Origin: Candidatus Lustribacter sp.
GTDB taxonomy: Bacteria; Vulcanimicrobiota; Vulcanimicrobiia; Vulcanimicrobiales; Vulcanimicrobiaceae
Assembly: GCA_965277805.1 (NCBI GenBank)
Contig: OZ255842.1
Location: forward strand, 2,048,001-2,112,000
DNA length: 64,000 bases
Direction: 5' to 3'
In this document: piece by piece, positions 45,601 to 59,458 of the stretch
Layout of the letters: each line of letters opens with the position of its first letter
Position numbering within the stretch: the stretch's first letter is position 1
Notes under the pieces: model-generated
What the model saw: the letters and a program-made list of their open reading frames with translations, nothing else
Told to the model about the DNA's origin: nothing
Databases searched by the model: none
Made by a program: the position numbers and the translations under genes

Positions 45601-46809
45601 TTAATCCGTGCCGGTAATCGGCAGCAGGCCTTCGGGTCGAACGAACGACCGCAGCGGACGCCCTTCCGCCAGGGCCTTGAGCTCCGTGCTCCACAGCTTA
45701 CGCATCGCGATGATAGCGACGTCGGAACGTCCGAGGTGCTCGACGCCTTTGCGCCGGTCAGCGATGCGCCCCTGACCGGTTTGACAGACGTCGTCTTGCG
45801 CCATCGCAACATGGTGACAGAGCTGCGCCATGTCGTCGTAGCCGATGTCGCCGCGCAACACGGCCTGAGCTGCGACATGCGCCTCTTCCTCCGCGTTCGC
45901 AAACTGTTTCCAGCGCTCGGCGTATGCCGGATCGACCGTATCGCCATGAAGATGAACATTAATGAGACGCAATTCGAGGGTGCTTTCGTCGTCGATCGGC
46001 ACGCGATAGGCTAGGAAATCTTGCCAGGCAACCTCCGCCCGGTTCACTTTCTCCTCACCAGGCTTTTGAATATTGTCGGGATGGACAGTGAAGAGGCCGA
46101 TATTCGGCATGCCGAAAAGCACCTCGCGTTTGTGGCCATGGCGCGTGGCGATGCATTTCATGCCCCACGGGGTTTCCTCGGCCGCGATCTCGGGCAGCTG
46201 ATCGAAGTAGACTTTGGTGAACACCGATGTCCGGTGCGTGAACGCGAGATGGCCCTCGTCCATGAAGTTTTCCACGCACTGAAAGAAATTGCAAGCGCGC
46301 ACGCTCATGAGCGGCATGACGAGCTTTCCCCGCTCCCATTCGGGATACCGCGGAAACTCGGGCGGGTCGCCGCCGCCGAAGTACGCATAGATCAAACCGA
46401 GGTAATCGCGCGCGGGATAGCCGCCGATCTTGACGCGCTGCGCGTAGGTGCTGTCGGGCCCCTCGAGCGGCTGCTCGACGCATTGACCGTTCGCTTCGAA
46501 TTTCCAGCCATGGTACGGACATCGAATGCAGTCGCCTTCCACCCAGCCGGCGTTGAGTTGCGTTCCACGATGCGCGCAGGCTTGGTCGACACAGTGAATG
46601 TCGCCCGACTCGCCGCGGTAGAGCGCGTAGTTCTCACCCATGATGCGCAACGGACGCGCGCGCCCGGGCGCTACGCTCTCACTCAAAGCCACCGGATGCC
46701 AGAACGTGCGCATGTAGCGTCCCGCGATCGTACCGGGGCCGGTGTGGGCGAAATCGACGCCCTCGCCGGCGTCATTTACGGAGGCAGTTCCGGAGAGAGT
46801 GGTCGTCAT
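45601..46809 (-). CDS. Rieske oxygenase alpha subunit, phthalate 4,5-dioxygenase/LigX type
   Basis: TGPGT..GRYMRTFWHP, CAHR...CPYHGW, ENFMDEGHLAFTH, HLGRSD. Confidence 0.9.
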   Translation of the reverse strand: MTTTLSGTASVNDAGEGVDFAHTGPGTIAGRYMRTFWHPVALSESVAPGRARPLRIMGENYALYRGESGDIHCVDQACAHRGTQLNAGWVEGDCIRCPYHGWKFEANGQCVEQPLEGPDSTYAQRVKIGGYPARDYLGLIYAYFGGGDPPEFPRYPEWERGKLVMPLMSVRACNFFQCVENFMDEGHLAFTHRTSVFTKVYFDQLPEIAAEETPWGMKCIATRHGHKREVLFGMPNIGLFTVHPDNIQKPGEEKVNRAEVAWQDFLAYRVPIDDESTLELRLINVHLHGDTVDPAYAERWKQFANAEEEAHVAAQAVLRGDIGYDDMAQLCHHVAMAQDDVCQTGQGRIADRRKGVEHLGRSDVAIIAMRKLWSTELKALAEGRPLRSFVRPEGLLPITGTD

Positions 46810-47810
46810 GAATACTCCTTACTTCGCGATTGAGCCAACGCGGCGCGTGCGATCTCTTCGTCTTCTTCGGCCGAGCGCGCTCCGGCGATCCCGAGCGCTC
46901 CCGCGACGCAACCAATTGCGTCAATGGTCGGCAGACCACCGGCAACGGCTAGAAAGGGAAAGCGAGCGAGACGCCCATACCCGGCTGCGTCCGCCGTCCA
47001 TGGACCTTCCGCGCCGCTGGGCGCTTGCAGGTTCACCGCTGTTGCCGCTTTGGCTTCTGCCAGATCCACCGTGATCGGCGCGGCGGAATCCATCCGGTCG
47101 AGCTGCACCAGATCGCCGTTACGGTCCGCGACCGCAGCACTGATGCGAACGCCTCGGCGCTGCGCTTCCGAAAACGCGGCGTCGACGACGGCCAGTGCCC
47201 AGGTCAGACGCTGCTGCTCGCGCGCCGGCGGCGGAGCGCTCAGACCCGTTCCGGAAGGCAGTGGATCGTACCGATTACCGTACGCCTTGCGCCAGCGCTC
47301 GAGATCGTCGCCGTGCTGTGGCGCATAATGATCCAGGCCGATCGCGTAGGAGATGATGAGGTCGATTGCATTCGCGGGCCGGCCTTCGACCAGAAACTTC
47401 TCCGGATCGACGCCGGGGGAACTGACCTCGGGCGGGATATCCGCTGCGGACGACATCGCTCCCACGTGCGCACCGTTGCGCGTGATCGGCATCGCGCCCG
47501 GTCCGGGGAAGCAGCGGTCGCGCAAGATGTCTTGATAGGCGGCGAAAACGCTCGGCGGCCGGCCGTAGATCCGTGCGGCGAAGCGGGCCGATGTTTCGCG
47601 GTTGGCCGCCGCCTCGTACGCCTTCGCGCGCGAGATGCCCATGCTGATCGATCCGGCGCCATCCATCCGCGACGCCGAAATGACGATGCCGCCCTCGTTG
47701 ACCACGACGAATGCGCCGCGCTGTCCGACGTCCTCGGCCTTGTCGACGGCACGCCGGAGCAGTTCACGCGCGTCGGCGAGCGAGAGCAGTGGAGCTTCGA
47801 ACCCCGTCAT
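46806..47810 (-). CDS. Tandem GlcG/HbpS (heme-binding, DUF336) domain protein
   Basis: Two copies of RMD.A.....A.AKA..A plus GG.P....G...GA.G..G; ATGA coupling on both sides. Confidence 0.82.
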   Translation of the reverse strand: MTGFEAPLLSLADARELLRRAVDKAEDVGQRGAFVVVNEGGIVISASRMDGAGSISMGISRAKAYEAAANRETSARFAARIYGRPPSVFAAYQDILRDRCFPGPGAMPITRNGAHVGAMSSAADIPPEVSSPGVDPEKFLVEGRPANAIDLIISYAIGLDHYAPQHGDDLERWRKAYGNRYDPLPSGTGLSAPPPAREQQRLTWALAVVDAAFSEAQRRGVRISAAVADRNGDLVQLDRMDSAAPITVDLAEAKAATAVNLQAPSGAEGPWTADAAGYGRLARFPFLAVAGGLPTIDAIGCVAGALGIAGARSAEEDEEIARAALAQSRSKEYS

Positions 47811-48412
47811 ACAAACGAACACGAGTCTTGGAATTCCAACCGAGGTAGCCGTCCGAACAACATATCCGGGTTACCGAATCCGACCGAACACAAGAAGTTC
47901 GAGCGATACGACGTGCCGGCCAAGAATGCTCGGTCGACGGCCTCGTGGTCGAATCCCGAGAGCGGCCCGCAATCGAGCCCCAGCGCACGCGCAGCGACGA
48001 TGAAATATGCACCCTGCAGGGTGGAATTGCGAAATGCCGTCGCTTCCGCGTACCCAGTGTCGTCCGCGTAATGGCCGCGCATGTCTTTGTGTGGAAAGAG
48101 CCGCGGCAGATGGTCGAAGAATCGCTCGTCGTAGGCGACGATCGCCGTTACAGGGGCGGACAGCACTTTCGGCTTGTTACCGGGGCTGACAGCCTCGGCC
48201 AGTTGCGCCTTCGCTTGAGCACTGCGCACAAAGATGAAGCGCGCCGGCTGCGAGTTCGTACTCGTGGGTCCGAGCTGGGCCAACCCGATCACCGCTCGGA
48301 GCAGCGCCTCGTCGACCTCCTTCGGCAACCAGCCGTTGTGGCTGCGCGCGGCCCGGAAGATCAAATCGAGACCCTGGTCGTCCAGGGCCCGACGATCGCA
48401 TTCGATATCCAT
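47807..48412 (-). CDS. RutE/HadB-type nitroreductase-family flavoprotein
   Basis: ARSHNGW, GPTSTNSQPARF, RNSTLQGAY, GLDCGPLSGFD, RLPRL. Confidence 0.9.
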   Translation of the reverse strand: MDIECDRRALDDQGLDLIFRAARSHNGWLPKEVDEALLRAVIGLAQLGPTSTNSQPARFIFVRSAQAKAQLAEAVSPGNKPKVLSAPVTAIVAYDERFFDHLPRLFPHKDMRGHYADDTGYAEATAFRNSTLQGAYFIVAARALGLDCGPLSGFDHEAVDRAFLAGTSYRSNFLCSVGFGNPDMLFGRLPRLEFQDSCSFV

Positions 48413-48436
48413 TAGCGCCTTCGCAGGTTCCTTTGT

Positions 48437-48471
48437 TTGAAGAATTTGTCTTTCAAGAATGTGTGTTTGAA
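48437..48471. promoter_or_regulatory. Probable MarR operator array
   Basis: TTGAA (48437) / TTCAA (48452) / TTGAA (48467) at exact 15-bp spacing in the divergent intergenic region. Confidence 0.55.
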
Positions 48472-48525
48472 GGTACTATGCATCTCGCGAGCCGAAACGT
48501 CAACCCTTCTCTAGGGGGTTATGCA

Positions 48526-49110
48526 GTGAAACCGCGGGACCACATCGACCTTGTGCGTAGGGCGGCGGGCATGCCGTCGTCCGACACGACGACGGTCGAA
48601 ATTACCAGCCGCCTTTTCCGGTTGTGCGCGCACTACGATCAACTCGTGTCGCCGCTCTACGCACGCCGCGGGCTGACGCGCGTCGAGCTGGATCTGCTTT
48701 GGGCGCTCGAACGCGCAGGCGATACGCCGCTGACGCCGACCAAGCTGGCGGCGCGGCAAATGTGCGCCTCGGGCACCCTCAGCAATCGCCTCGAAAAATT
48801 GGAGCGGCTGGGCCTGCTCACGCGTCAGGCGGATCCATCCGACCGGCGCGGCGTCCTGCTTGAGATCACCGAGCACGGCCGCACGATCGTCAACGAACTC
48901 AACGCGGCGCGCGAACGTATCGATGCACTTCTAATCCCCGGCCTGACCGTCGCGCAACGGCGCGCATTGGTGGACCTGCTGCGGACATCGCTCATTGCGG
49001 CCGAACAGATCGCGCAGCTGGAAACGGCGAGCGAGACGCCACCGTCCTCCGATGAAGAATCATCTGCACCGCAGCCAGCGCCGCTGCGCCGGACGCGTGC
49101 GGCCCGCTAA
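48526..49110 (+). CDS. MarR-family regulator
   Basis: LTPTKLA...SGTLSNRLEKLERLGLLTR..DPSDRRGVLLEITEHG; AGGGGG SD before GTG. Confidence 0.9.
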   Translation: MKPRDHIDLVRRAAGMPSSDTTTVEITSRLFRLCAHYDQLVSPLYARRGLTRVELDLLWALERAGDTPLTPTKLAARQMCASGTLSNRLEKLERLGLLTRQADPSDRRGVLLEITEHGRTIVNELNAARERIDALLIPGLTVAQRRALVDLLRTSLIAAEQIAQLETASETPPSSDEESSAPQPAPLRRTRAAR

Positions 49111-49143
49111 CATTTCTGCAAACCGCTGTAAGGAAAGGCCCTG

Positions 49144-49527
49144 ATGCAGGTTACCAAAGACGATGTCATGCAAGCCAGCAAAGGCATGCTACAGAAGCAA
49201 TTCTACGTCGTGTTCAGTACGCCGACGAATGGGATTGGTCCCGTGATGGAAAACCTCGAGGCACACCTCGCGCACCAATGCAAGATCGAGGCGGACGGAA
49301 TCATGGTGGCGGCCGGCCCGTACTGGACCGATGACGAGAAGCAATGGGAAGGCGAGGGCATGTTCGTCATTCGTGCGCGATCCCTCGCGCATGCGAAGGA
49401 ACTTGCGGCGAGCGACCCGATGCACAAATGCGGAGCGCGGTCGTTCGTCGTCCGGCCATGGATGGTGAATGAAGGCGGCCTCACTATCCGGCTCACGTTC
49501 TCGGACGGGAAATTCGTTCTTGAGTAA
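49144..49527 (+). CDS. YciI-family protein (copy 1)
   Basis: AHLAHQ, AAGP, GMFVIRA, DPMH...RPW. Confidence 0.85.
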   Translation: MQVTKDDVMQASKGMLQKQFYVVFSTPTNGIGPVMENLEAHLAHQCKIEADGIMVAAGPYWTDDEKQWEGEGMFVIRARSLAHAKELAASDPMHKCGARSFVVRPWMVNEGGLTIRLTFSDGKFVLE

Positions 49528-49573
49528 CGACGTTCCTGAACGGTCTTCTCGCAGCGCCTCGGAGTTCTACTGA

Positions 49574-50764
49574 ATGCCGTCACTAGCGAAGCTCTCGGAG
49601 TCCACTCGCAACTCCGTTTTGACCCTGCCGGTCGACCTCCACGAGTCGAGCCCGTTCACGCGGCCCAAGAAGCCACTCAGCCAATCGCGGGTCGCGATCG
49701 TCACGACGGCCGGATTACACCGCCGCGACGACCGGCCGTTTACCGGCGGGGATCCGACCTTCCGAGCCATACCCTCAGGAACGCCGGCGTCAGAGATCGT
49801 GCAAAGCCACACCAGCATCGGGTTCGACCGGACCGCCGTGCTCGAGGACATCAACGTCGTTTTTCCGATCGAGCGGTTGCGCGAGATGCTTTCGGCGGGT
49901 CGCATCGGGGAGTTGGCGCCGACCTTCTATTCGTTCATGGGCGCGCAGCGTGACTGGTCACCGATCAGGGAGCGAACGGGACCCGAAGTTGCGAACCTGT
50001 TGGTCGGCGATGGTGTCGACGTCGTCTTACTTACACCAACTTGACCACTTTGCACGAACACGGTCAGTGTTCTCTCACGGGTCTTGGAAGAAAACGGGCT
50101 CACGACGGTCGCTTTGAGTCTGATCCGCGAACACACGGAAAAAGTGAAGCCTCCGCGCGCCGTGTACGTTCCCTTTCCGTTGGGTCTGCCGGTCGGTCAT
50201 CCCGGAAACGTTTCCGAACAGGAGGCCGTCTTGGACTTGGCATTTTCCACTCTCGATGCCGCCAGCGGCCCCGTGCTGCTCGACTATCGCGATGACTCGG
50301 CAGCCGAGGAGGCCGGCTCGCCGCTTCAGGCCTCCGACGTCGATGCGGACGAGCAGGCTCGGACGGCTGACTTCGCTACGGAAGTGACGTTGATGCGGCG
50401 CTATTGGGAGCAGCACGTCGCGGCGACCGGCCGCACCGGCGTCGGCTTATCGAACGTCCCGCCGCAGCGGTTCCGCGGCGTCGTGCGGTTTCTCGAAGCT
50501 CTTCTCACCGATCAAACGGCCGACTCGGACGAACGGCCGGCGGAGGTGCCGAGACCGCTGTTCATCCGGACGTGCCTCGAGGACCTACGCGTGATGTACA
50601 GTGAAGCGCGCTTGCAAACGCATCCACATGAGTCAAGTCAAGACCGGCAACGTTGGTTGCTCGGCTCGACCGCGCTCGGGCTCATGCTGCGCAGCCTGCG
50701 CGATACCTTCGACGCCTCGACCGATCCGCAGTTCAAAGCGCTCGCCTTCGGTATCGCGCGCTGA
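49574..50764 (+). CDS. PrdB/GrdB-family selenoprotein (396 aa, Sec157, UxxC) with a C-terminal extension
   Basis: Two same-frame ORFs joined by TGA 50042-50044: VLLTPT-U-PLCTNTVSVLSRVLEENGLTT; family motifs on both sides (KPLSQSRVAIVTTAG, DINVVFPIERL; KPPRAVYVPFPLG); the in-window paralog has Cys here. Confidence 0.85.
50045..50072 (+). promoter_or_regulatory. Candidate bacterial SECIS element
   Basis: Stem GAACAC/GTGTTC (50056-61/50067-72) with GGTCA loop starting 17 nt after the UGA. Confidence 0.65.
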
Positions 50765-50768
50765 TTCG

Positions 50769-51152
50769 ATGGAAGAACAGGAGCGGTTCTCATCCTTACA
50801 CACATGGGCACGGCGCGCGGGAGACGTCGTGACGGTCGGTATCAGCGCCTACGCCGAACATCAATTGGGTGAGCTGCAATACGTCGGTCTACCGCGCGTC
50901 GGCTCTGCCGTTGTGAAAGACCAGTGCTTCGGTGAGGCTGAATCGACGAAGACCGTTTCCGACCTCTACGCTCCGTGCAGCGGCACCGTCGTTGCGGTCA
51001 ACTCCGAACTCATTGCCGATCCTGCGCTGGTCAATCGCGATCCGTATGGCGCGGGGTGGATAATACTGGTTGAGCCGTCGCAGCCCGGGGAATTCCACGA
51101 ATTGCTCGACCAGCCGGCGTACGACGCGTTCGTCGCCACGCAGGAGCATTGA
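50769..51152 (+). CDS. gcvH: Glycine-cleavage H-protein-like lipoyl carrier
   Basis: HTWAR, VGISAYA..QLG, lipoyl-Lys motif ESTKTVSDLYAP, VNRDPYGAGW. Confidence 0.9.
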   Translation: MEEQERFSSLHTWARRAGDVVTVGISAYAEHQLGELQYVGLPRVGSAVVKDQCFGEAESTKTVSDLYAPCSGTVVAVNSELIADPALVNRDPYGAGWIILVEPSQPGEFHELLDQPAYDAFVATQEH

Positions 51153-51206
51153 GGCATCCAAGCTATGCTTTCAACCTAAGATGATAAGCGAGGGGGCTTG
51201 TACCAC

Positions 51207-51400
51207 GTGCTAAGATCCACATTCGTCTCTTCCAGTCTGAGCCTAACGGCAGCGGCGGAATTGCCGCTGCCGGTAGGCGCCCAATCTGTCGCGTTCGCTC
51301 CAGATGCCACCCGAAGCCGTCGGGCAGAGGTGGTTACGACAATGAACCTTGCGCGCCCGGGCGTTTCGCAGGCGTGGATCCCCTTGCCGTCAGTGAGCGC
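51207..51400 (+). pseudogene. Possible N-terminal remnant of a secreted (transglutaminase-like) protein
   Basis: Degenerate signal peptide, then EVVTT...SQAWIPLPSV, then no continuation. Confidence 0.3.
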
Positions 51401-51544
51401 CCTAGCCGTTCTTGATGTATCCTCAAGCCGTGAACGCGGGCATCGCCTGCGACTGCCTCGATCCAAAGGCTGTCGCTTATTCGATCACGGTAACGGCCTA
51501 GTTTCTCTCTTCGAAGGCGACGCGACGTTCCCGAGGTACTCAAC

Positions 51545-52516
51545 ATGTCCGCTGCAATCCATTCGCTCGATCACTTTAGCTTCGCCGTCCCTGACGTAGC
51601 CGCCGCGGCTGCGTTCTACGAACGCTTCGGCCTCGATGTCCGCTCGGAAGGTACGGGTTTCACGCTGCGCGCGAGCGGCAGCGATCACGTTTGGGGTCGC
51701 ATTTACGAAGGCCCGCGAAAAGCCATCGGTTACCTCTCGTTCGGCGCGTACGAGCACGATATGCCGCAACTGCGCAAGCAAGTCGCCGGATGCGGAGTGG
51801 CGTTACTGCCGGCTCCGAAACGTGCCGTCGACGATGGCGGGGTGTGGTTCGAGGATCCGGACGGGACACTAATAGAGATTCGCGTCGGTCCGAAGGTCTC
51901 GCCTGACGTAAAAGCTGCGCTGAGCGCGACGTTTGCCCCGCCCGATGTCGCTGGTGCGCCCATGCGCTCCGACGCCAAGACGGTGCGGCCCGACCGTCTT
52001 TCGCACGTGCTCGTGTTCACGAGCGATGTCTCGCGCGCGATCGACTTTTATCGCGAGACCGTTGGCATGCAGCTCTCCGATCGGGCTCGGGACGGCATCG
52101 GGTTCATGCACGGCGCACACGGCAGCGACCATCACCTCGTCGCATTCGCGAAATCTGACGCTCGCGGATTTCATCATTGCAGTTGGAACGTAGCTTCGGT
52201 GAGCGATGTCGGCCTAGGTGCGATGCAAATGGCCGATGCGGGATACACTCGCGGGTGGGGAATGGGGCGGCACGTACTCGGGTCAAACTATTTTGACTAC
52301 ATCCGCGACCCGTGGGGAAGCTACTCCGAATATTCCTACGATATCGATTTCGTCACTCCGGGAGCGGTTGCGAAAGGCACGTGGAAAGCGACCGACGCAT
52401 CGCCCGAAAATGGCTTCTACTTGTGGGGGCCGTTGCCACCTGACGATTTCGCCTTTAATTACGAGTCGCCGTCGGCCGAATTACAACGGGACCTCGTCGC
52501 AAGCGAACCGCGGTAA
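51545..52516 (+). CDS. Two-domain VOC extradiol dioxygenase-like protein
   Basis: C-domain ligands LSHVL, HHCSW, GRHVLGSNYFDYIRDPWGSYSEY; GAGG SD. Confidence 0.88.
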   Translation: MSAAIHSLDHFSFAVPDVAAAAAFYERFGLDVRSEGTGFTLRASGSDHVWGRIYEGPRKAIGYLSFGAYEHDMPQLRKQVAGCGVALLPAPKRAVDDGGVWFEDPDGTLIEIRVGPKVSPDVKAALSATFAPPDVAGAPMRSDAKTVRPDRLSHVLVFTSDVSRAIDFYRETVGMQLSDRARDGIGFMHGAHGSDHHLVAFAKSDARGFHHCSWNVASVSDVGLGAMQMADAGYTRGWGMGRHVLGSNYFDYIRDPWGSYSEYSYDIDFVTPGAVAKGTWKATDASPENGFYLWGPLPPDDFAFNYESPSAELQRDLVASEPR

Positions 52517-55529: not shown

Positions 55530-55599
55530 TTTCTTGCCTTTGTGGCGGCCGCACTCCTGTGCTACAAAGCCTCGGACGGTACTTGCGGGGGATGCGCTC

Positions 55600-56607
55600 A
55601 TGACTGATTCCGGCACATTTTCGCTTGCCAAAGCCCGCGCATTGCTTTCGCGCGCCGTAGCAAAATGCGAGGCCTTTGGGCAATCCGGCACCTTCGTCGT
55701 CGTCGACGCCTCGGGCGCTCCGGTGAGCGTGGCGCGTATGGACGGCTGCGCCCCCTCGGCGCTGCCGCTGGTTCGTGCGAAGGCGTTCGCCACCGCCGCG
55801 AACGGCGAGCCGAGCGCGCTCTTCGCCGCACGCATGGAGAAGTTCGGTCCCCACACGTTTGCGAGCTATCAGGCCGTTCTGCGCGACCAGCCGTTTCCGG
55901 GCGCCGGCGGTGTACCGGTGCGGGAGAACGGGAGGATCGTCGGAGCGATTGCGACCGGCCTGCGCATCGGGCCGTTCGTCAAGTTGCCCGGCATCTCGCC
56001 GTCGCAACTGATCGCCGACGGCAAGCCGGGCAATCTCGAGGATACGATCATCAGCTACGCGCTCGGCGTACCGTACAATCCGCAGCACGGCGATGACGCT
56101 GCGCGCTGGACCGAAGCCTATGGCGCGCCGCCGGACCCGGCGGAAAAAGGAACGGCCATGGACCCGGTTCCGGAAGCGAGCGCGCAACCCGAACTCGCGC
56201 GCGCGCGCGCAATTGCCGATCGCGTGATCGCGCGCGCCACGGAAAAGGGCGCGCGCGTGGCCGTTGCGGTTGTCGATGCGGCCGGCGATGCCGTCACGCT
56301 CGATCGCATGGACGGCGCGCCGCCGATGGGGGTCGACGTCGCCGCAGCCACCGCGACCGCCGCCGTCAATTTTGGCATGGCGTCGGGGGCGATCGCAGCC
56401 GACCGCCACTATTCGAGCGTTCTCGACAGCGTGCTCACAACCGTCCCATACCGGATGCTGACGTTGCCCGGCGGATGTCCGATTCGCAGCGGAACGGCGG
56501 TGCTCGCTGCCATCGGTGTGTATTGTCATGATCTCGACCTCGCCGCCGAGCTTGCGCAGAGTGCGGCGGATTGGGTCTTACCGCAATTCGAAGGAAGTGG
56601 TCAATGA
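55600..56607 (+). CDS. Tandem GlcG/HbpS domain protein (paralog of 46806..47810)
   Basis: RMDGC..AKAFATA and RMDGAPP; shared IISYA.G..Y.PQHGDD..RW..AYG linker. Confidence 0.82.
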   Translation: MTDSGTFSLAKARALLSRAVAKCEAFGQSGTFVVVDASGAPVSVARMDGCAPSALPLVRAKAFATAANGEPSALFAARMEKFGPHTFASYQAVLRDQPFPGAGGVPVRENGRIVGAIATGLRIGPFVKLPGISPSQLIADGKPGNLEDTIISYALGVPYNPQHGDDAARWTEAYGAPPDPAEKGTAMDPVPEASAQPELARARAIADRVIARATEKGARVAVAVVDAAGDAVTLDRMDGAPPMGVDVAAATATAAVNFGMASGAIAADRHYSSVLDSVLTTVPYRMLTLPGGCPIRSGTAVLAAIGVYCHDLDLAAELAQSAADWVLPQFEGSGQ

Positions 56608-57809
56608 TAGAACAGGATCGCATCGACATCGACATCGCTCCGCTCACCGATCCTGGCACGGTCGACTATGTCCACACCGGCCCCGGCACCTTGGCCGGCA
56701 CCTACTTACGGCGCTTTTGGCACCCCGTCTATTGCAGCCGTAACCTCGAGCCCGGCTTCGCTAAGCCGCTGACGATCATGAGCCAGAAATTGGCGCTGTA
56801 CCGCAGCCAGGAAGGCCAGGTCCACTGCGTCGACAACCGCTGTGCGCATCGCGGCGCGATGCTCAGCACGGGCTGGGTCGAGGGCGACGTCATCCGCTGC
56901 CCCTATCATGGCTGGGCGTACGGGGCCGATGGCAGGTGCGTGGAGCAGCCGATGGAACGAGCGACATTCGCCAAGCATATTCGCATCGGCGGCTACCCGA
57001 CGCAAGAATATCTCGGCTTCATCTGGCTCTATCTCGGCAACGGCGAACCGCCCCCGTTTATACGCTATCCCGAATGGGAGAATGCGCCCTTCGTTTCCGC
57101 TCAGATCGACACGCGGCCATGCAATTGGTTTCAGAACATCGAGAACTATCAAGACGAAGCTCACGTTTGGTTCACGCACAAGCGCTCCGCGCTCGAAGGC
57201 CTCGATCTGAACCATCTGCCGCAGCTCTCGTGTGAGAAAACGCCCTGGGGCTTGCGTATGATCGCAAAGAAACAGGACGGCAACGACCGCATCGTGCAGT
57301 TCGGTATGCCCAACATCTGCATGTTCGCCGTGCATCCGGACAACATTAAACGCCAGGGCGAAGAACGCAACGCCGACGAGACAGCGTGGCAGATGTTCCT
57401 CGACTACCGGGTGCCGGTGGACGATTTCTCGCATCTGCAAGTGCACTGTATCGCGACGTTCATGAACGGGACGCCCAGCGAAGAGTACAAGAAGCGCTGG
57501 AAAGACTTCGCGAACGCCGAAGCCGAGGCCCACGAGGTCGCGCAGAAAGTGCTGCGCGGCGAACTCCAGTACGATAGGATCGCCGAAATATGCCACCACG
57601 TGCCACTTGCGCAAGACGAAGTTGTGCAAGTGGGCCAGGGCGTCATTGCGGATCGCCGGCGCGGCATCGAAAATCTGGGCTCGACGGACGTCGGCGTCGT
57701 CGCGATCCGGCGACTGTATACGCAGGAGCTCACGGCGCTGGCCGAAGGCCGGCCGCTCGGGAATTTCGAGCGGCCGGAGGGACTGTTGCCCAAAGGCGGC
57801 GGCGACTAA
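56604..57809 (+). CDS. Rieske oxygenase alpha subunit (paralog of 45601..46809)
   Basis: HTGPGTLAG.YLRRFWHP, CAHR...CPYHGW, ENYQDEAHVWFTH; shared FGMPNI..F.VHPDNI and CHHV..AQD. Confidence 0.9.
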   Translation: MIEQDRIDIDIAPLTDPGTVDYVHTGPGTLAGTYLRRFWHPVYCSRNLEPGFAKPLTIMSQKLALYRSQEGQVHCVDNRCAHRGAMLSTGWVEGDVIRCPYHGWAYGADGRCVEQPMERATFAKHIRIGGYPTQEYLGFIWLYLGNGEPPPFIRYPEWENAPFVSAQIDTRPCNWFQNIENYQDEAHVWFTHKRSALEGLDLNHLPQLSCEKTPWGLRMIAKKQDGNDRIVQFGMPNICMFAVHPDNIKRQGEERNADETAWQMFLDYRVPVDDFSHLQVHCIATFMNGTPSEEYKKRWKDFANAEAEAHEVAQKVLRGELQYDRIAEICHHVPLAQDEVVQVGQGVIADRRRGIENLGSTDVGVVAIRRLYTQELTALAEGRPLGNFERPEGLLPKGGGD

Positions 57810-58192
57810 TGCCGGTTTCCAAAGAGGACATCCTTGAAGCCGGTAAAGGCATGCTGCAAAAGCAGTATTACGTCGTCTTCAGCACGCCGACGAACGGTAT
57901 CGGTCCCGTGATGGAAAATCTCGAGGCGCACCTCGCGCATCAATGTAAGATCGAGGCCGACGGCATTATGGTGGCGGCCGGACCGCACTGGACGGATGAC
58001 GAGACGCAGTGGGAGGGCGACGGGATGTTCGTCATCCGCGCACGGGACCTCGTGCACGCAAAGGAGCTTGCGGCGAGCGATCCGATGCACAAATGCGGAG
58101 CGCGGTCGTTCAAAGTCCGCCCGTGGCTGGTGTGCGAAGGCGGCTTTACCATACGGATCACGTTTTCGGACGGCAAATTCGCACTCGAGTAA
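57809..58192 (+). CDS. YciI-family protein (copy 2)
   Basis: 108/127 aa identical to 49144..49527 by manual alignment; TAATG coupling. Confidence 0.88.
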   Translation: MPVSKEDILEAGKGMLQKQYYVVFSTPTNGIGPVMENLEAHLAHQCKIEADGIMVAAGPHWTDDETQWEGDGMFVIRARDLVHAKELAASDPMHKCGARSFKVRPWLVCEGGFTIRITFSDGKFALE

Positions 58193-58223
58193 CGTCGCGC
58201 TCATCGGCGGAAAGTGAAGGCTC

Positions 58224-58577
58224 ATGCTCTACCTCAGAATGTGTTTTGACAGTCCCGGTAAGGAACAGCTCCGCGATGCCACGCGGTCGGAGCACCGCGC
58301 CTACCTCGTCCCATTTCTGGCCCCCGGCGGGGACGTCCACATCGTTCAGGCCGGTCCCATGTGCGGCAGCGATGAGAGCGATCAGAACGTGGGCAGCTTT
58401 TTCGTCGTCGAAGCCACGTCGATAAAGGCGGTCGAGGCCTTTCACGCCGGCGATCCGTTCACGCAAAAAGGCGTGTTCGGAAACGCGACGGTCGTGCGGT
58501 GGGATCGGCACATCGACAGTAGCAGCGAATCGCACGCGACGTTCGCCGCACAAAACGCCCGGCCGGCTGTCGGATAA
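58224..58577 (+). CDS. YciI-family protein, canonical type
   Basis: D.PG..QLR..TR.EHRAYL, AGP, GSFFVVEA, DPFT..GVF. Confidence 0.85.
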   Translation: MLYLRMCFDSPGKEQLRDATRSEHRAYLVPFLAPGGDVHIVQAGPMCGSDESDQNVGSFFVVEATSIKAVEAFHAGDPFTQKGVFGNATVVRWDRHIDSSSESHATFAAQNARPAVG

Positions 58578-58579
58578 CG

Positions 58580-59458
58580 ATGCCGTACAGCTTCTCCCGC
58601 TTTCTGGCCGAACTGGGGCGATCGATTCCGATGCCCGAATTCGATCCGCCCACGCTCGTGCCGTTGCGCAAGCCCATCGCCGAGTCGACAATCGGGATGT
58701 TCGTCAGCTGCGGCGCGCAACTGCCCGAAGACCCGCCGCTGCTCGAGACGGAAGACATCACGTTCCGGTTGTTGCCACGCGACGTCCCGACCGATCGACT
58801 AGTCATTTCGCATCAAACGCTGGTACGGAAGTGGGCGGTAGAAGACCTGAACGTCGCATACCCGATCGACCGCATGAAGGAGCTGGAACGTGAGGGAACG
58901 TTCAAGCGGCTCGCGCACACAAACGTCTCAATGGTCGGTTCGATCGAGCGCTATACCGAATTGATGGAACAGACAGTGCCGCGGATGAAGGCCGTCTTTG
59001 ACTCGCAAGGTGTCGACCTCGTCTTGTTGCTGCCGTTCTGCCCCGCATGTCATCGGGCGACGGGCCTCGTCGCTCGGGCGTTGGAGGCCCGCGGGCTGCC
59101 GACCATTAGCACGAGCGTGCTGTGGGAAATGAGCGCTGCCGTCAAGCCGCCGCGCACGTGCTTCCTAGATTTTCCGCTAGGTTGCCCGGCCGGCAAGCCG
59201 CACGAAGTAGCGCAGCAGCGCGACATTCTCCGTCAAACGCTGCAACTCGCACCGGAGTTCGACGCCGACAGCTGGGCGATGAAGTCGCTGCCGTTTCAAT
59301 GGGATGCCGACGGAAGTCGCGACTGGGAGCGCGCGACAGAAGACCTCTACCGAAACGGTGGAATCAAGATTACCGATCGGCACATGGCGGCGCACGCAAA
59401 CGTCGGCGAGTCGTTACTTGGCAACGAGCGCGCCTTCGCAGTCAAATGTAACTGTTAA
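58580..59458 (+). CDS. PrdB/GrdB-family Cys homolog (CxxC) with a C-terminal CxC
   Basis: KPIAESTIG, EDLNVAYPIDRM, VLLLPFCPACHRATGLVARALEARGLPT, KPPR...DFPLG; ends KCNC-stop. Confidence 0.85.
   Translation: MPYSFSRFLAELGRSIPMPEFDPPTLVPLRKPIAESTIGMFVSCGAQLPEDPPLLETEDITFRLLPRDVPTDRLVISHQTLVRKWAVEDLNVAYPIDRMKELEREGTFKRLAHTNVSMVGSIERYTELMEQTVPRMKAVFDSQGVDLVLLLPFCPACHRATGLVARALEARGLPTISTSVLWEMSAAVKPPRTCFLDFPLGCPAGKPHEVAQQRDILRQTLQLAPEFDADSWAMKSLPFQWDADGSRDWERATEDLYRNGGIKITDRHMAAHANVGESLLGNERAFAVKCNC

Follow-up and report, generated by a model that had tools for sequence, protein, structure and literature searches.

Selenoproteins with a UxxC motif that are annotated as 'proline reductase PrdB' (pfam07355) constitute, according to the available text of the two surveys that reported them, one of the selenoprotein families that are most abundant in aerobic ocean metagenomes: 42 selenocysteine (Sec) genes were found in the Sargasso Sea (Zhang, Fomenko & Gladyshev 2005, PMC1088965), and 235 Sec genes as compared to 110 cysteine (Cys) homologues were found in the Global Ocean Sampling (GOS) data (Zhang & Gladyshev 2008, PMC2398784). 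Recent reviews, in their accessible portions, still enter the family under D-proline reductase alone (PMC9312934, PMC13188914). Here we describe a gene of this family in a stretch of 64,000 nucleotides (nt) from Candidatus Lustribacter sp. (Vulcanimicrobiota; assembly GCA_965277805.1, contig OZ255842.1, positions 2,048,001 to 2,112,000; hereinafter, the window, to which all coordinates refer). The gene, at 49574..50764 on the plus strand, is seen as two open reading frames (ORFs) and, when translated with TGA as Sec (U), encodes a 396-amino acid (aa) PrdB-like UxxC protein.

The protein combines pfam07355 with a UxxC motif in which Sec comes first, the definition of the environmental family in Table 2 of PMC2398784 so far as the available text of that paper gives it. 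In the accessible parts of both surveys (PMC1088965, PMC2398784), the environmental family shares with the window gene, in addition to the Pfam family and the motif, the existence of Cys-type homologues, an origin from oxygenated habitats and a tendency to be missed by gene callers; these same parts describe no architecture, partner or function beyond the name. A difference lies in the sources: the relatives of the window protein come from soil/peat-type Vulcanimicrobiota metagenome-assembled genomes (MAGs) and from actinomycetes rather than from marine plankton. Given that UxxC PrdB selenoproteins have been reported since 2005, the use of Sec by the window protein is expected for the family. 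A literature search turned up no publication on the long-form architecture, on the GcvH neighbour or on the aromatic-catabolism setting described below (the supplements of PMC1088965, PMC2398784, PMC9312934 and PMC13188914 may hold more), nor anything relevant on Sec use in Eremiobacterota/Vulcanimicrobiota.

The ATG at 49574, with a ribosome-binding site GGAG at 49561..49564 on the plus strand, 9 nt 5' of it, opens a reading frame that reaches an in-frame TGA at 50042-50044. Between this codon and a TTG at 50084 lie 13 sense codons (50045-50083) in the same frame, which then remains open until the TGA at 50762-50764, the true stop; inspection of the sequence revealed nothing comparable to the GGAG 5' of the TTG, and a scan of 48200-51700 for promoters and terminators yielded nothing useful. 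The ORFs 49574..50044 and 50084..50764, which the original prediction had joined on account of this layout, are one gene interrupted by the UGA. Read-through translation gives 396 aa with the sequence ...VVLLTPT-U157-PLC160-TNT... around the break. TIGR04483, the curated PrdB profile, aligns residues 26-224 with its positions 18-215, unbroken across the UGA; full-length homologues of 393-399 aa are collinear with the joined protein over all 396 residues, those of the 13 'intergenic' codons and the last 150 at the C-terminus included; and the Cys-type homologues are single, collinear proteins of 394 aa. Both halves retain coding-type composition and conserved residues, and the AlphaFold2 (AF2) model of the joined protein, built from a 27-sequence alignment, is one compact protein, with a mean predicted local distance difference test score (pLDDT) of 90.7 and a predicted template modelling score (pTM) of 0.89.

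Species-representative genomes were scanned and yielded 26 related loci (designated below by L numbers), in which the codon aligned with the UGA at 50042..50044 (plus strand; codon 157) is TGA in 20 and TGC or TGT in the remaining six, with no other residue at this position. The Sec loci span Acidimicrobiia, Alpha- and Gammaproteobacteria, SAR324, Chloroflexota and Acidobacteriota MAGs; TGC or TGT was verified only in L001-L003, L011, L015 and L016. U157 is also aligned to the leading residue of the redox motif in P0295, an NCBIfam-validated PrdB (453.2 bits to the PrdB model) that is 37% identical to the window protein over 194 residues and whose C..C falls on U157..C160. Public gene calls are split at the same place, in accord with the earlier expectation that standard annotation would report two genes or a pseudogene: among the best 120 'shorter' database matches, 84 are N-terminal pieces that all end in TP[T/S/V], one residue before the U column, and 78 of these are exactly 156 aa long (identity to the window protein, 58-93%), and among the best 120 'near' matches, 104 are C-terminal pieces without the motif and 16 are full length. 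Among named relatives, those closest to the N-terminal half are MAG proteins labelled Candidatus Aquilonibacter (81% identity) and Candidatus Lustribacter (67%; Vulcanimicrobiota). Given that TGA terminates 27 of the 52 called genes in the window, more than either of the other stops, genome-wide reassignment of this codon is ruled out; and among the 19 positions that a scan for other in-frame TGA candidates in the window yielded, only 50042 comes with a redox motif or conserved context. UGA-157 is thus very likely decoded as selenocysteine, a reading supported by the comparison of related sequences.

In the maximum-likelihood tree, the long forms cluster together (88/87 support), with the three actinomycete Cys forms and the window protein united in one clade (100/99 support). 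At least four changes of the Sec/Cys label are needed to account for the distribution of the two residues over this tree.

Downstream of the UGA, at 50056..50072 on the plus strand, lies a hairpin of the bacterial selenocysteine insertion sequence (SECIS) type, in which GAACAC (50056-50061) pairs with GTGTTC (50067-50072) in a 6-bp stem around the loop GGTCA (50062-50066); both the hairpin and the placement of its loop 17 nt past the UGA had been pointed out in the original prediction and are found at these positions. The element is 17 nt long and occupies nt 15-31 counted from the U of the UGA, with a gap of 11 nt between the UGA and the stem. The rule for Escherichia coli, as far as the available text of the source goes, is a stem-loop of 17 nt that occupies nt 15-31, lies 11 nt past the UGA and has G23 and U24 as conserved loop residues (PMC8659212). 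With the E. coli fdhF-type element the window hairpin shares this length, position and spacing, the G-U in the apical loop and the location inside the coding sequence (PMC8659212, same portion); the differences are that it has no bulged U in the 5' arm, that its G-U stands one loop position earlier and that it has no Rfam match. Indeed, a search of the whole window at the Rfam gathering threshold returned 0 matches, so that no curated SECIS family applies.

On the single sequence, the hairpin is weak evidence; the comparative data carry the case. We examined covariation in 11 long-form Sec sequences (the window, L004-L010 and L012-L014), in which 65 of the 66 stem cells are paired and four of the six pairs change on both sides, the stem variants being GAACAC/GUGUUC, GCGCGC/GCGCGC, GCGUAC/GUACGC, GCGCUC/GAGCGC and GCGCAC/GUGUGC. 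The covariation score is 0.461, compared to 0.198 +/- 0.042 for shuffled alignments, and none of the 500 shuffles reached it. Several of the compensatory stem changes replace the amino acids that the two arms encode, indicating that it is the RNA rather than the protein that is under conservation; the loop G and U are invariant in these sequences. In the six Cys orthologues, only 17 of the 36 stem cells pair in the same register. Nine of the 10 short-form Sec loci have a downstream hairpin of their own, of 6-8 bp, the situation in L025 being unclear. Judged from these alignments, the hairpin is maintained as a predicted structure in the Sec forms and is lost in the Cys-type orthologues.

An alternative pairing of TGACC (50042-46) with the GGTCA loop, which the original prediction had raised as a caveat, is possible in the window sequence and is not conserved: out of 10 further long-form Sec loci, only L007 (loop GGTCG) shows partial complementarity; this pseudoknot was rejected.

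Several observations weigh against the decoding of the UGA as Sec and have to be set beside this evidence. As had been noted at the outset, the window contains no sel genes: selA, selB, selD and tRNA-Sec are absent from the 64 kb, with 0 tRNAs by ARAGORN, 0 Rfam matches and no Sel families among the 63 ORFs. The three closest genome-resolved relatives (L001-L003, from actinomycetes, 46-48% identity) are all Cys forms. Taken alone, the 65-nt window segment 50036-50100 has a folding z-score of -0.21, with 84 of 200 shuffles folding at least as well, and a comparable 6-bp hairpin follows 6.4-7.1% of all window positions (about 1% if G-T early in the loop is required). Registers slid by +/-2 still pair 73-74% of the cells, given that the stem is rich in alternating G and C, although with only 0-1 compensatory pairs. 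The bulged U of the E. coli element is missing from the hairpin, and the covariation is drawn from relatives with 34-40% protein identity. As for the databases, the fragments are not phylogenetically independent, and U is printed as C in the protein collection, so that the 'Cys' of the full-length metagenome proteins may partly be Sec.

Taking all this together, we are confident that the best overall explanation is a single gene for a 396-residue selenoprotein; in this respect, the hidden UxxC selenoprotein of the original prediction is supported by the profile alignment across the UGA, the TGA/Cys column, the covarying hairpin and the split gene calls. Three other accounts of the interrupted frame have to be considered. 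The lack of Sec machinery in the window and the TGC at this codon in the closest genome-resolved relatives could both be accommodated by a pseudogene or a sequencing error, that is, a nonsense mutation or a miscalled base in a Cys-type gene from which only fragments or nothing would be made. The recurrence of TGA at the same codon in 20 of the 26 loci from several phyla, the 84 of 84 database fragments (58-93% identity) that stop at the same residue, the coding-type composition and conserved residues of both halves and a covarying hairpin that goes with TGA only make this explanation extremely unlikely. Read-through without selenium, whereby a near-cognate tRNA inserts Trp or Cys, or the Sec pathway has been lost, so that a low yield of the full-length product is made, would likewise agree with the absence of Sec genes from the window and, furthermore, with the C that follows the UGA in every locus, UGA-C being a leaky context in E. 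coli. This C, however, is forced by the codon of the invariant Pro; a SECIS-type hairpin with an invariant G-U loop that is kept through compensatory, amino acid-changing substitutions is unexplained without SelB; and lineages without Sec have switched to TGC or TGT, at least four times on the tree. We therefore regard such read-through as very improbable. Finally, gene callers make two genes of the window gene and of its homologues, one for a GRDB-domain protein of 156 aa and one for a protein of 226 aa that would start at the TTG at 50084; this is scarcely credible given the missing ribosome-binding site before 50084, the conservation at the protein level of the 13 intervening codons, which include the invariant Cys160, the single collinear 394-aa Cys-type homologues and a predicted beta-strand/helix pair at the motif that spans the break.

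A further question is whether the selenoprotein is a genuine B subunit of D-proline (or glycine/betaine) reductase engaged in Stickland-type reduction of amino acids. PrdB is the best NCBIfam match, the Joint Genome Institute (JGI) calls homologues 'D-proline reductase (dithiol) PrdB', and the selenoproteome surveys file such genes under PrdB in the text available (PMC1088965, PMC2398784). Nevertheless, the score with TIGR04483, the PrdB equivalog, is 146.8 bits, below the curated cutoff of 300, and the models of the B proteins of glycine, sarcosine and betaine reductases (GrdB/GrdF/GrdH, and a selenoprotein-B subfamily model) are missed by far in most cases: 42.2 bits against a cutoff of 602.2 for TIGR01917, 50.5 against 65.45 for TIGR01918, 60.5 against 800 for NF040794 and 59.1 against 775 for NF040795. 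No PrdA/GrdE-type family was detected when the 63 ORFs of the window and 110 ORFs in the flanks of 13 related loci were scanned, there is an extra C-terminal domain, and the oxygenase neighbours suggest an aerobic setting. A function as such a subunit is accordingly most unlikely. Because the score is below the cutoff, there is no prdA in the window and the protein carries an additional C-terminal helical domain of about 140 residues, the window protein is not D-proline reductase, and 'PrdB' denotes a family resemblance only. The label 'PrdB-like' from the original prediction thus stands in so far as the TIGR04483 and GRDB matches attest to that resemblance; an identity as D-proline reductase does not follow from it. 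For this branch of an abundant environmental selenoprotein family, the name 'proline reductase' is very probably wrong.

The details of the comparison with the characterized families bear this out. The PrdB/GrdB-type alpha/beta core of the window protein comprises residues ~26-224 (49649..50245, plus strand; TIGR04483, 146.8 bits; Pfam GRDB, PF07355, 43 bits). With the clostridial PrdB represented by TIGR04483, the protein shares this homologous core and the identical position of Sec in the U/C-x-x-C motif; it differs in its length (396 aa compared to 238 positions of the PrdB model), in the absence of prdA and prdC-F nearby, in the motif itself, which is UPLC with an invariant Pro as opposed to C/U-G-T-C in P0295, and in having aerobic catabolic genes as neighbours. 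When 20 relatives were scored with TIGR04483, P0295 passed the cutoff and the other 19 fell below it. GrdB, GrdF and GrdH have the superfamily and the Sec position in common with the window protein, and their profiles align with residues ~20-208, albeit at 42-60 bits against cutoffs mostly in the range of 602-800. The Grd B proteins consist of two domains and about 430 aa, and the window protein matches only the profile positions from ~205 on; thus, the GrdB-type N-terminal half (profile positions 1 to ~200) is missing, and grdA, grdC, grdD and grdE are all absent from the window.

The Pfam GRDB model (PF07355, gathering cutoff 22) matches the joined protein with 43 bits over residues 22-156 and the first ORF alone with 47.3 bits. 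The match ends at profile position 347 of 347, which is residue 156, immediately before the Sec, suggesting that the model was built from ORFs truncated at the UGA. Because the profile ends there, the downstream half of such genes is never flagged by domain scans. Database entries for the window gene and dozens of its homologues consist of a 156-aa 'PrdB' and a 'hypothetical protein' of about 226 aa; merging the ORFs corrects the annotation, and the merged gene implies that the host organism uses the Sec pathway.

In the AF2 model, the U-x-x-C motif is located between a strand (150-154) and a helix (158-173), and the alpha/beta core is followed by a helical domain formed by helices within residues 260-395. 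The codon of Cys160, TGC at 50051..50053 on the plus strand, is invariant in 27 of the 27 aligned family members, and this residue is proposed to be the resolving cysteine of U-P-L-C. The pattern of a beta-strand, (T)-C/U-P-x-C and a helix is locally the same as that in the CPxC site of glutaredoxins and thioltransferases: a search of PDB sequences with the family profile retrieved only glutaredoxins, at the motif (E 0.065-0.18). These matches are non-significant and cover about 30 residues, and the overall fold has no PDB counterpart. Foldseek, run against the PDB with the confident AF2 model, returned no match at E <= 0.001 (best E 0.014, template modelling (TM) score <= 0.24), so that there is no solved relative and nothing to hint at the nature of the C-terminal domain.

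The C-terminal helical domain (residues ~260-396; 50351..50761, plus strand) is specific to the long forms and is delineated by the AF2 helices as well as by conservation: E270 and D337 are invariant, and Y342, E344 and W361 are nearly so. It is conserved in all long-form orthologues, the Cys-type ones included, and is absent from the paralogue at 58580..59458. The original prediction had stated this last point correctly for the Cys paralogue. No Pfam or NCBIfam family matches the domain. A search of the ESM Atlas with residues 75-226 of the second ORF as translated with table 11 gave only 'hypothetical' clusters, with scores of 0.86-0.88 that are below the meaningful level, and a search for fused or longer forms found none, which is weak evidence.

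Two of the Sec-type loci deviate from the common pattern around the motif. L026 (10001-10690, a Gammaproteobacteria MAG) reads VPA-U-PLDH, with no Cys three residues past the Sec, so the resolving cysteine is absent or located elsewhere; a downstream hairpin of 8 bp with a GUG loop is present nonetheless. In L025 (10403-10420, a Thermoanaerobaculia MAG), the TGA at the Sec column is followed five codons on by an in-frame TAG (UPTCN*), and no clear SECIS hairpin is seen; this locus may be a decaying copy or an assembly error.

The selenoprotein gene belongs to a run of plus-strand genes that starts with a MarR-family regulator (48433..49110; Pfam MarR, MarR_2) and continues with a YCII-family gene directly upstream of it (49144..49527; Pfam YCII, 33 bits). 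Beginning 4 nt past the stop of the selenoprotein gene is a gene for a GcvH-type lipoyl carrier (50769..51152, plus strand; Pfam GCV_H, 119.4 bits) that has the lipoyl-lysine motif ESTK and scores 116.4 bits with NCBIfam gcvH (TIGR00527; cutoff, 115.85); family scans of the window found no gcvT or gcvP beside it. An extradiol dioxygenase gene (51545-52516) follows. Divergently transcribed near the selenoprotein gene are those for a RutE-like nitroreductase, a tandem HbpS-like protein and a Rieske oxygenase. The lipoyl-carrier gene 4 nt downstream and the aromatic-catabolism setting seem to be undescribed.

A GcvH gene also comes after the Cys orthologue in L001 and L003, that is, in two of the three closest genome loci; the idea of GcvH as a partner is weakened by the 23 of 26 loci that have no GcvH nearby. 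In L001 and L003, a DUF1330 gene is located directly upstream of the Cys orthologue, and the orthologue thus flanked by DUF1330 and GcvH lies beside a muconate-cycloisomerase-type gene, with flavin adenine dinucleotide (FAD) monooxygenases near; an intradiol dioxygenase is found on the other side of the Cys-orthologue cluster in L001 and L002.

The protein could work as follows. With the ribosome at UGA-157, the hairpin at 50056-50072 would serve as a bacterial SECIS and recruit SelB carrying Sec-tRNA(Sec), selenocysteine would be inserted, and translation would run on to the TGA at 50762. The model places the resulting U157-P-L-C160 centre after a beta-strand and before the beginning of a helix, an arrangement like that of glutaredoxin-type CPxC sites. 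By analogy with the Grd and Prd enzymes, the selenolate would attack the substrate, Cys160 would resolve the adduct into an Se-S bond, and a dithiol would re-reduce this bond; the dithiol might be that of dihydrolipoyl-GcvH, encoded 4 nt downstream. The assignment of the GcvH lipoyl protein as the reductant or partner, prompted by the position of its gene, is tentative, a possibility to which we give less than even weight. The enzyme would act without a PrdA pyruvoyl subunit, conceivably on an aerobic aromatic intermediate derived from an oxygenase reaction, for example, in quinone reduction or in the reductive cleavage of a C-X bond next to a carbonyl; any named class of substrates is doubtful. 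Equally speculative, and rather unlikely in its complete form, is the view that the long forms constitute a distinct, PrdA-independent class of seleno/thiol reductases of aerobes that employ a dedicated lipoyl-GcvH donor and catalyze a reductive step in oxygenase-initiated aromatic catabolism. If true, both selenocysteine and the H-protein would thereby have a new role, apart from anaerobic Stickland chemistry and glycine cleavage. In any case, the conserved extra domain, the GcvH neighbour and the oxygenase-rich setting provide a testable lead to the function of a family that has been without one since 2005.

The three GcvH proteins (window, 50769-51152; L001, 11210-11611; L003, 11222-11623) share the motif Y-A-P-C-S-G, with a Cys shortly past the lipoyl-lysine. 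Canonical GcvH has a hydrophobic residue at the position of this Cys. An extra thiol beside the lipoyl arm could matter for a redox role.

The window encodes a second, Cys-type member of the family, the short paralogue of 292 aa at 58580..59458 on the plus strand (TIGR04483, 134.4 bits), whose translation reads LLLPF-C-PAC with TGC at 59039, the residue that the original prediction had aligned with the Sec. A YCII gene (58224-58577) is directly upstream. Altogether, 13 kb of the window contain two copies of a set of genes for four proteins (Rieske oxygenase, tandem HbpS-like/GlcG, YCII and PrdB-like), one at 45601-48412 on the minus strand and one at 55534-59458 on the plus strand, with identities between the copies of 55% for the Rieske, 47% for the HbpS-like, 32% for the YCII and about 32-44% for the PrdB-like proteins. 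The two copies differ in that one includes the Sec long form and GcvH, and the other, about 6 kb away, the Cys short form without GcvH. No reductase or ferredoxin for the Rieske oxygenases was seen beside either copy of the module.

The Cys paralogue has a hairpin of its own within 59039-59075, with a 7-bp stem and no G-U in the loop (GGCGACG/GGCCT/CGTCGCT, -10.6 kcal/mol), and the gap between the Cys codon and this stem exceeds that between the UGA and the SECIS stem by 3 nt; the hairpin could be a relic of a former SECIS or a chance structure in G+C-rich DNA.

The nitroreductase at 47807-48412 (minus strand), next to the HbpS-like gene, scores above the NCBIfam cutoff for malonic semialdehyde reductase of the RutE type (272 bits versus 152), which is unexpected company for a Rieske oxygenase cluster. 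With regard to the YCII genes, a member of the YciI family, TftG, is described in the available text of PMC7641849 as a dehydrochlorinase in a chlorohydroxyquinol pathway. In the flanks of the proteobacterial Sec-type loci L004, L007 and L009, glutathione S-transferases (GSTs) are recurrent; L009 encodes a 343-aa GST with GST_N_2 and GST_C_2 domains, and a YCII gene is present there as well. Such GST neighbours agree with a role of the wider family in a thiol-dependent pathway of detoxification or aromatic metabolism.

On a larger scale, positions 1-45000 of the window are dense in genes of aerobic aromatic catabolism, encoding VanA-like and other Rieske oxygenases, at least three vicinal-oxygen-chelate dioxygenases and FAD monooxygenases, together with a gentisate/cupin-type protein, an FAA hydrolase, amidohydrolase_2 decarboxylase-like proteins, coenzyme A (CoA) transferases and an HpcH aldolase. 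Solute-binding proteins are unusually many in this region, with seven of the Peripla_BP_6 family and five of the NMT1 type.

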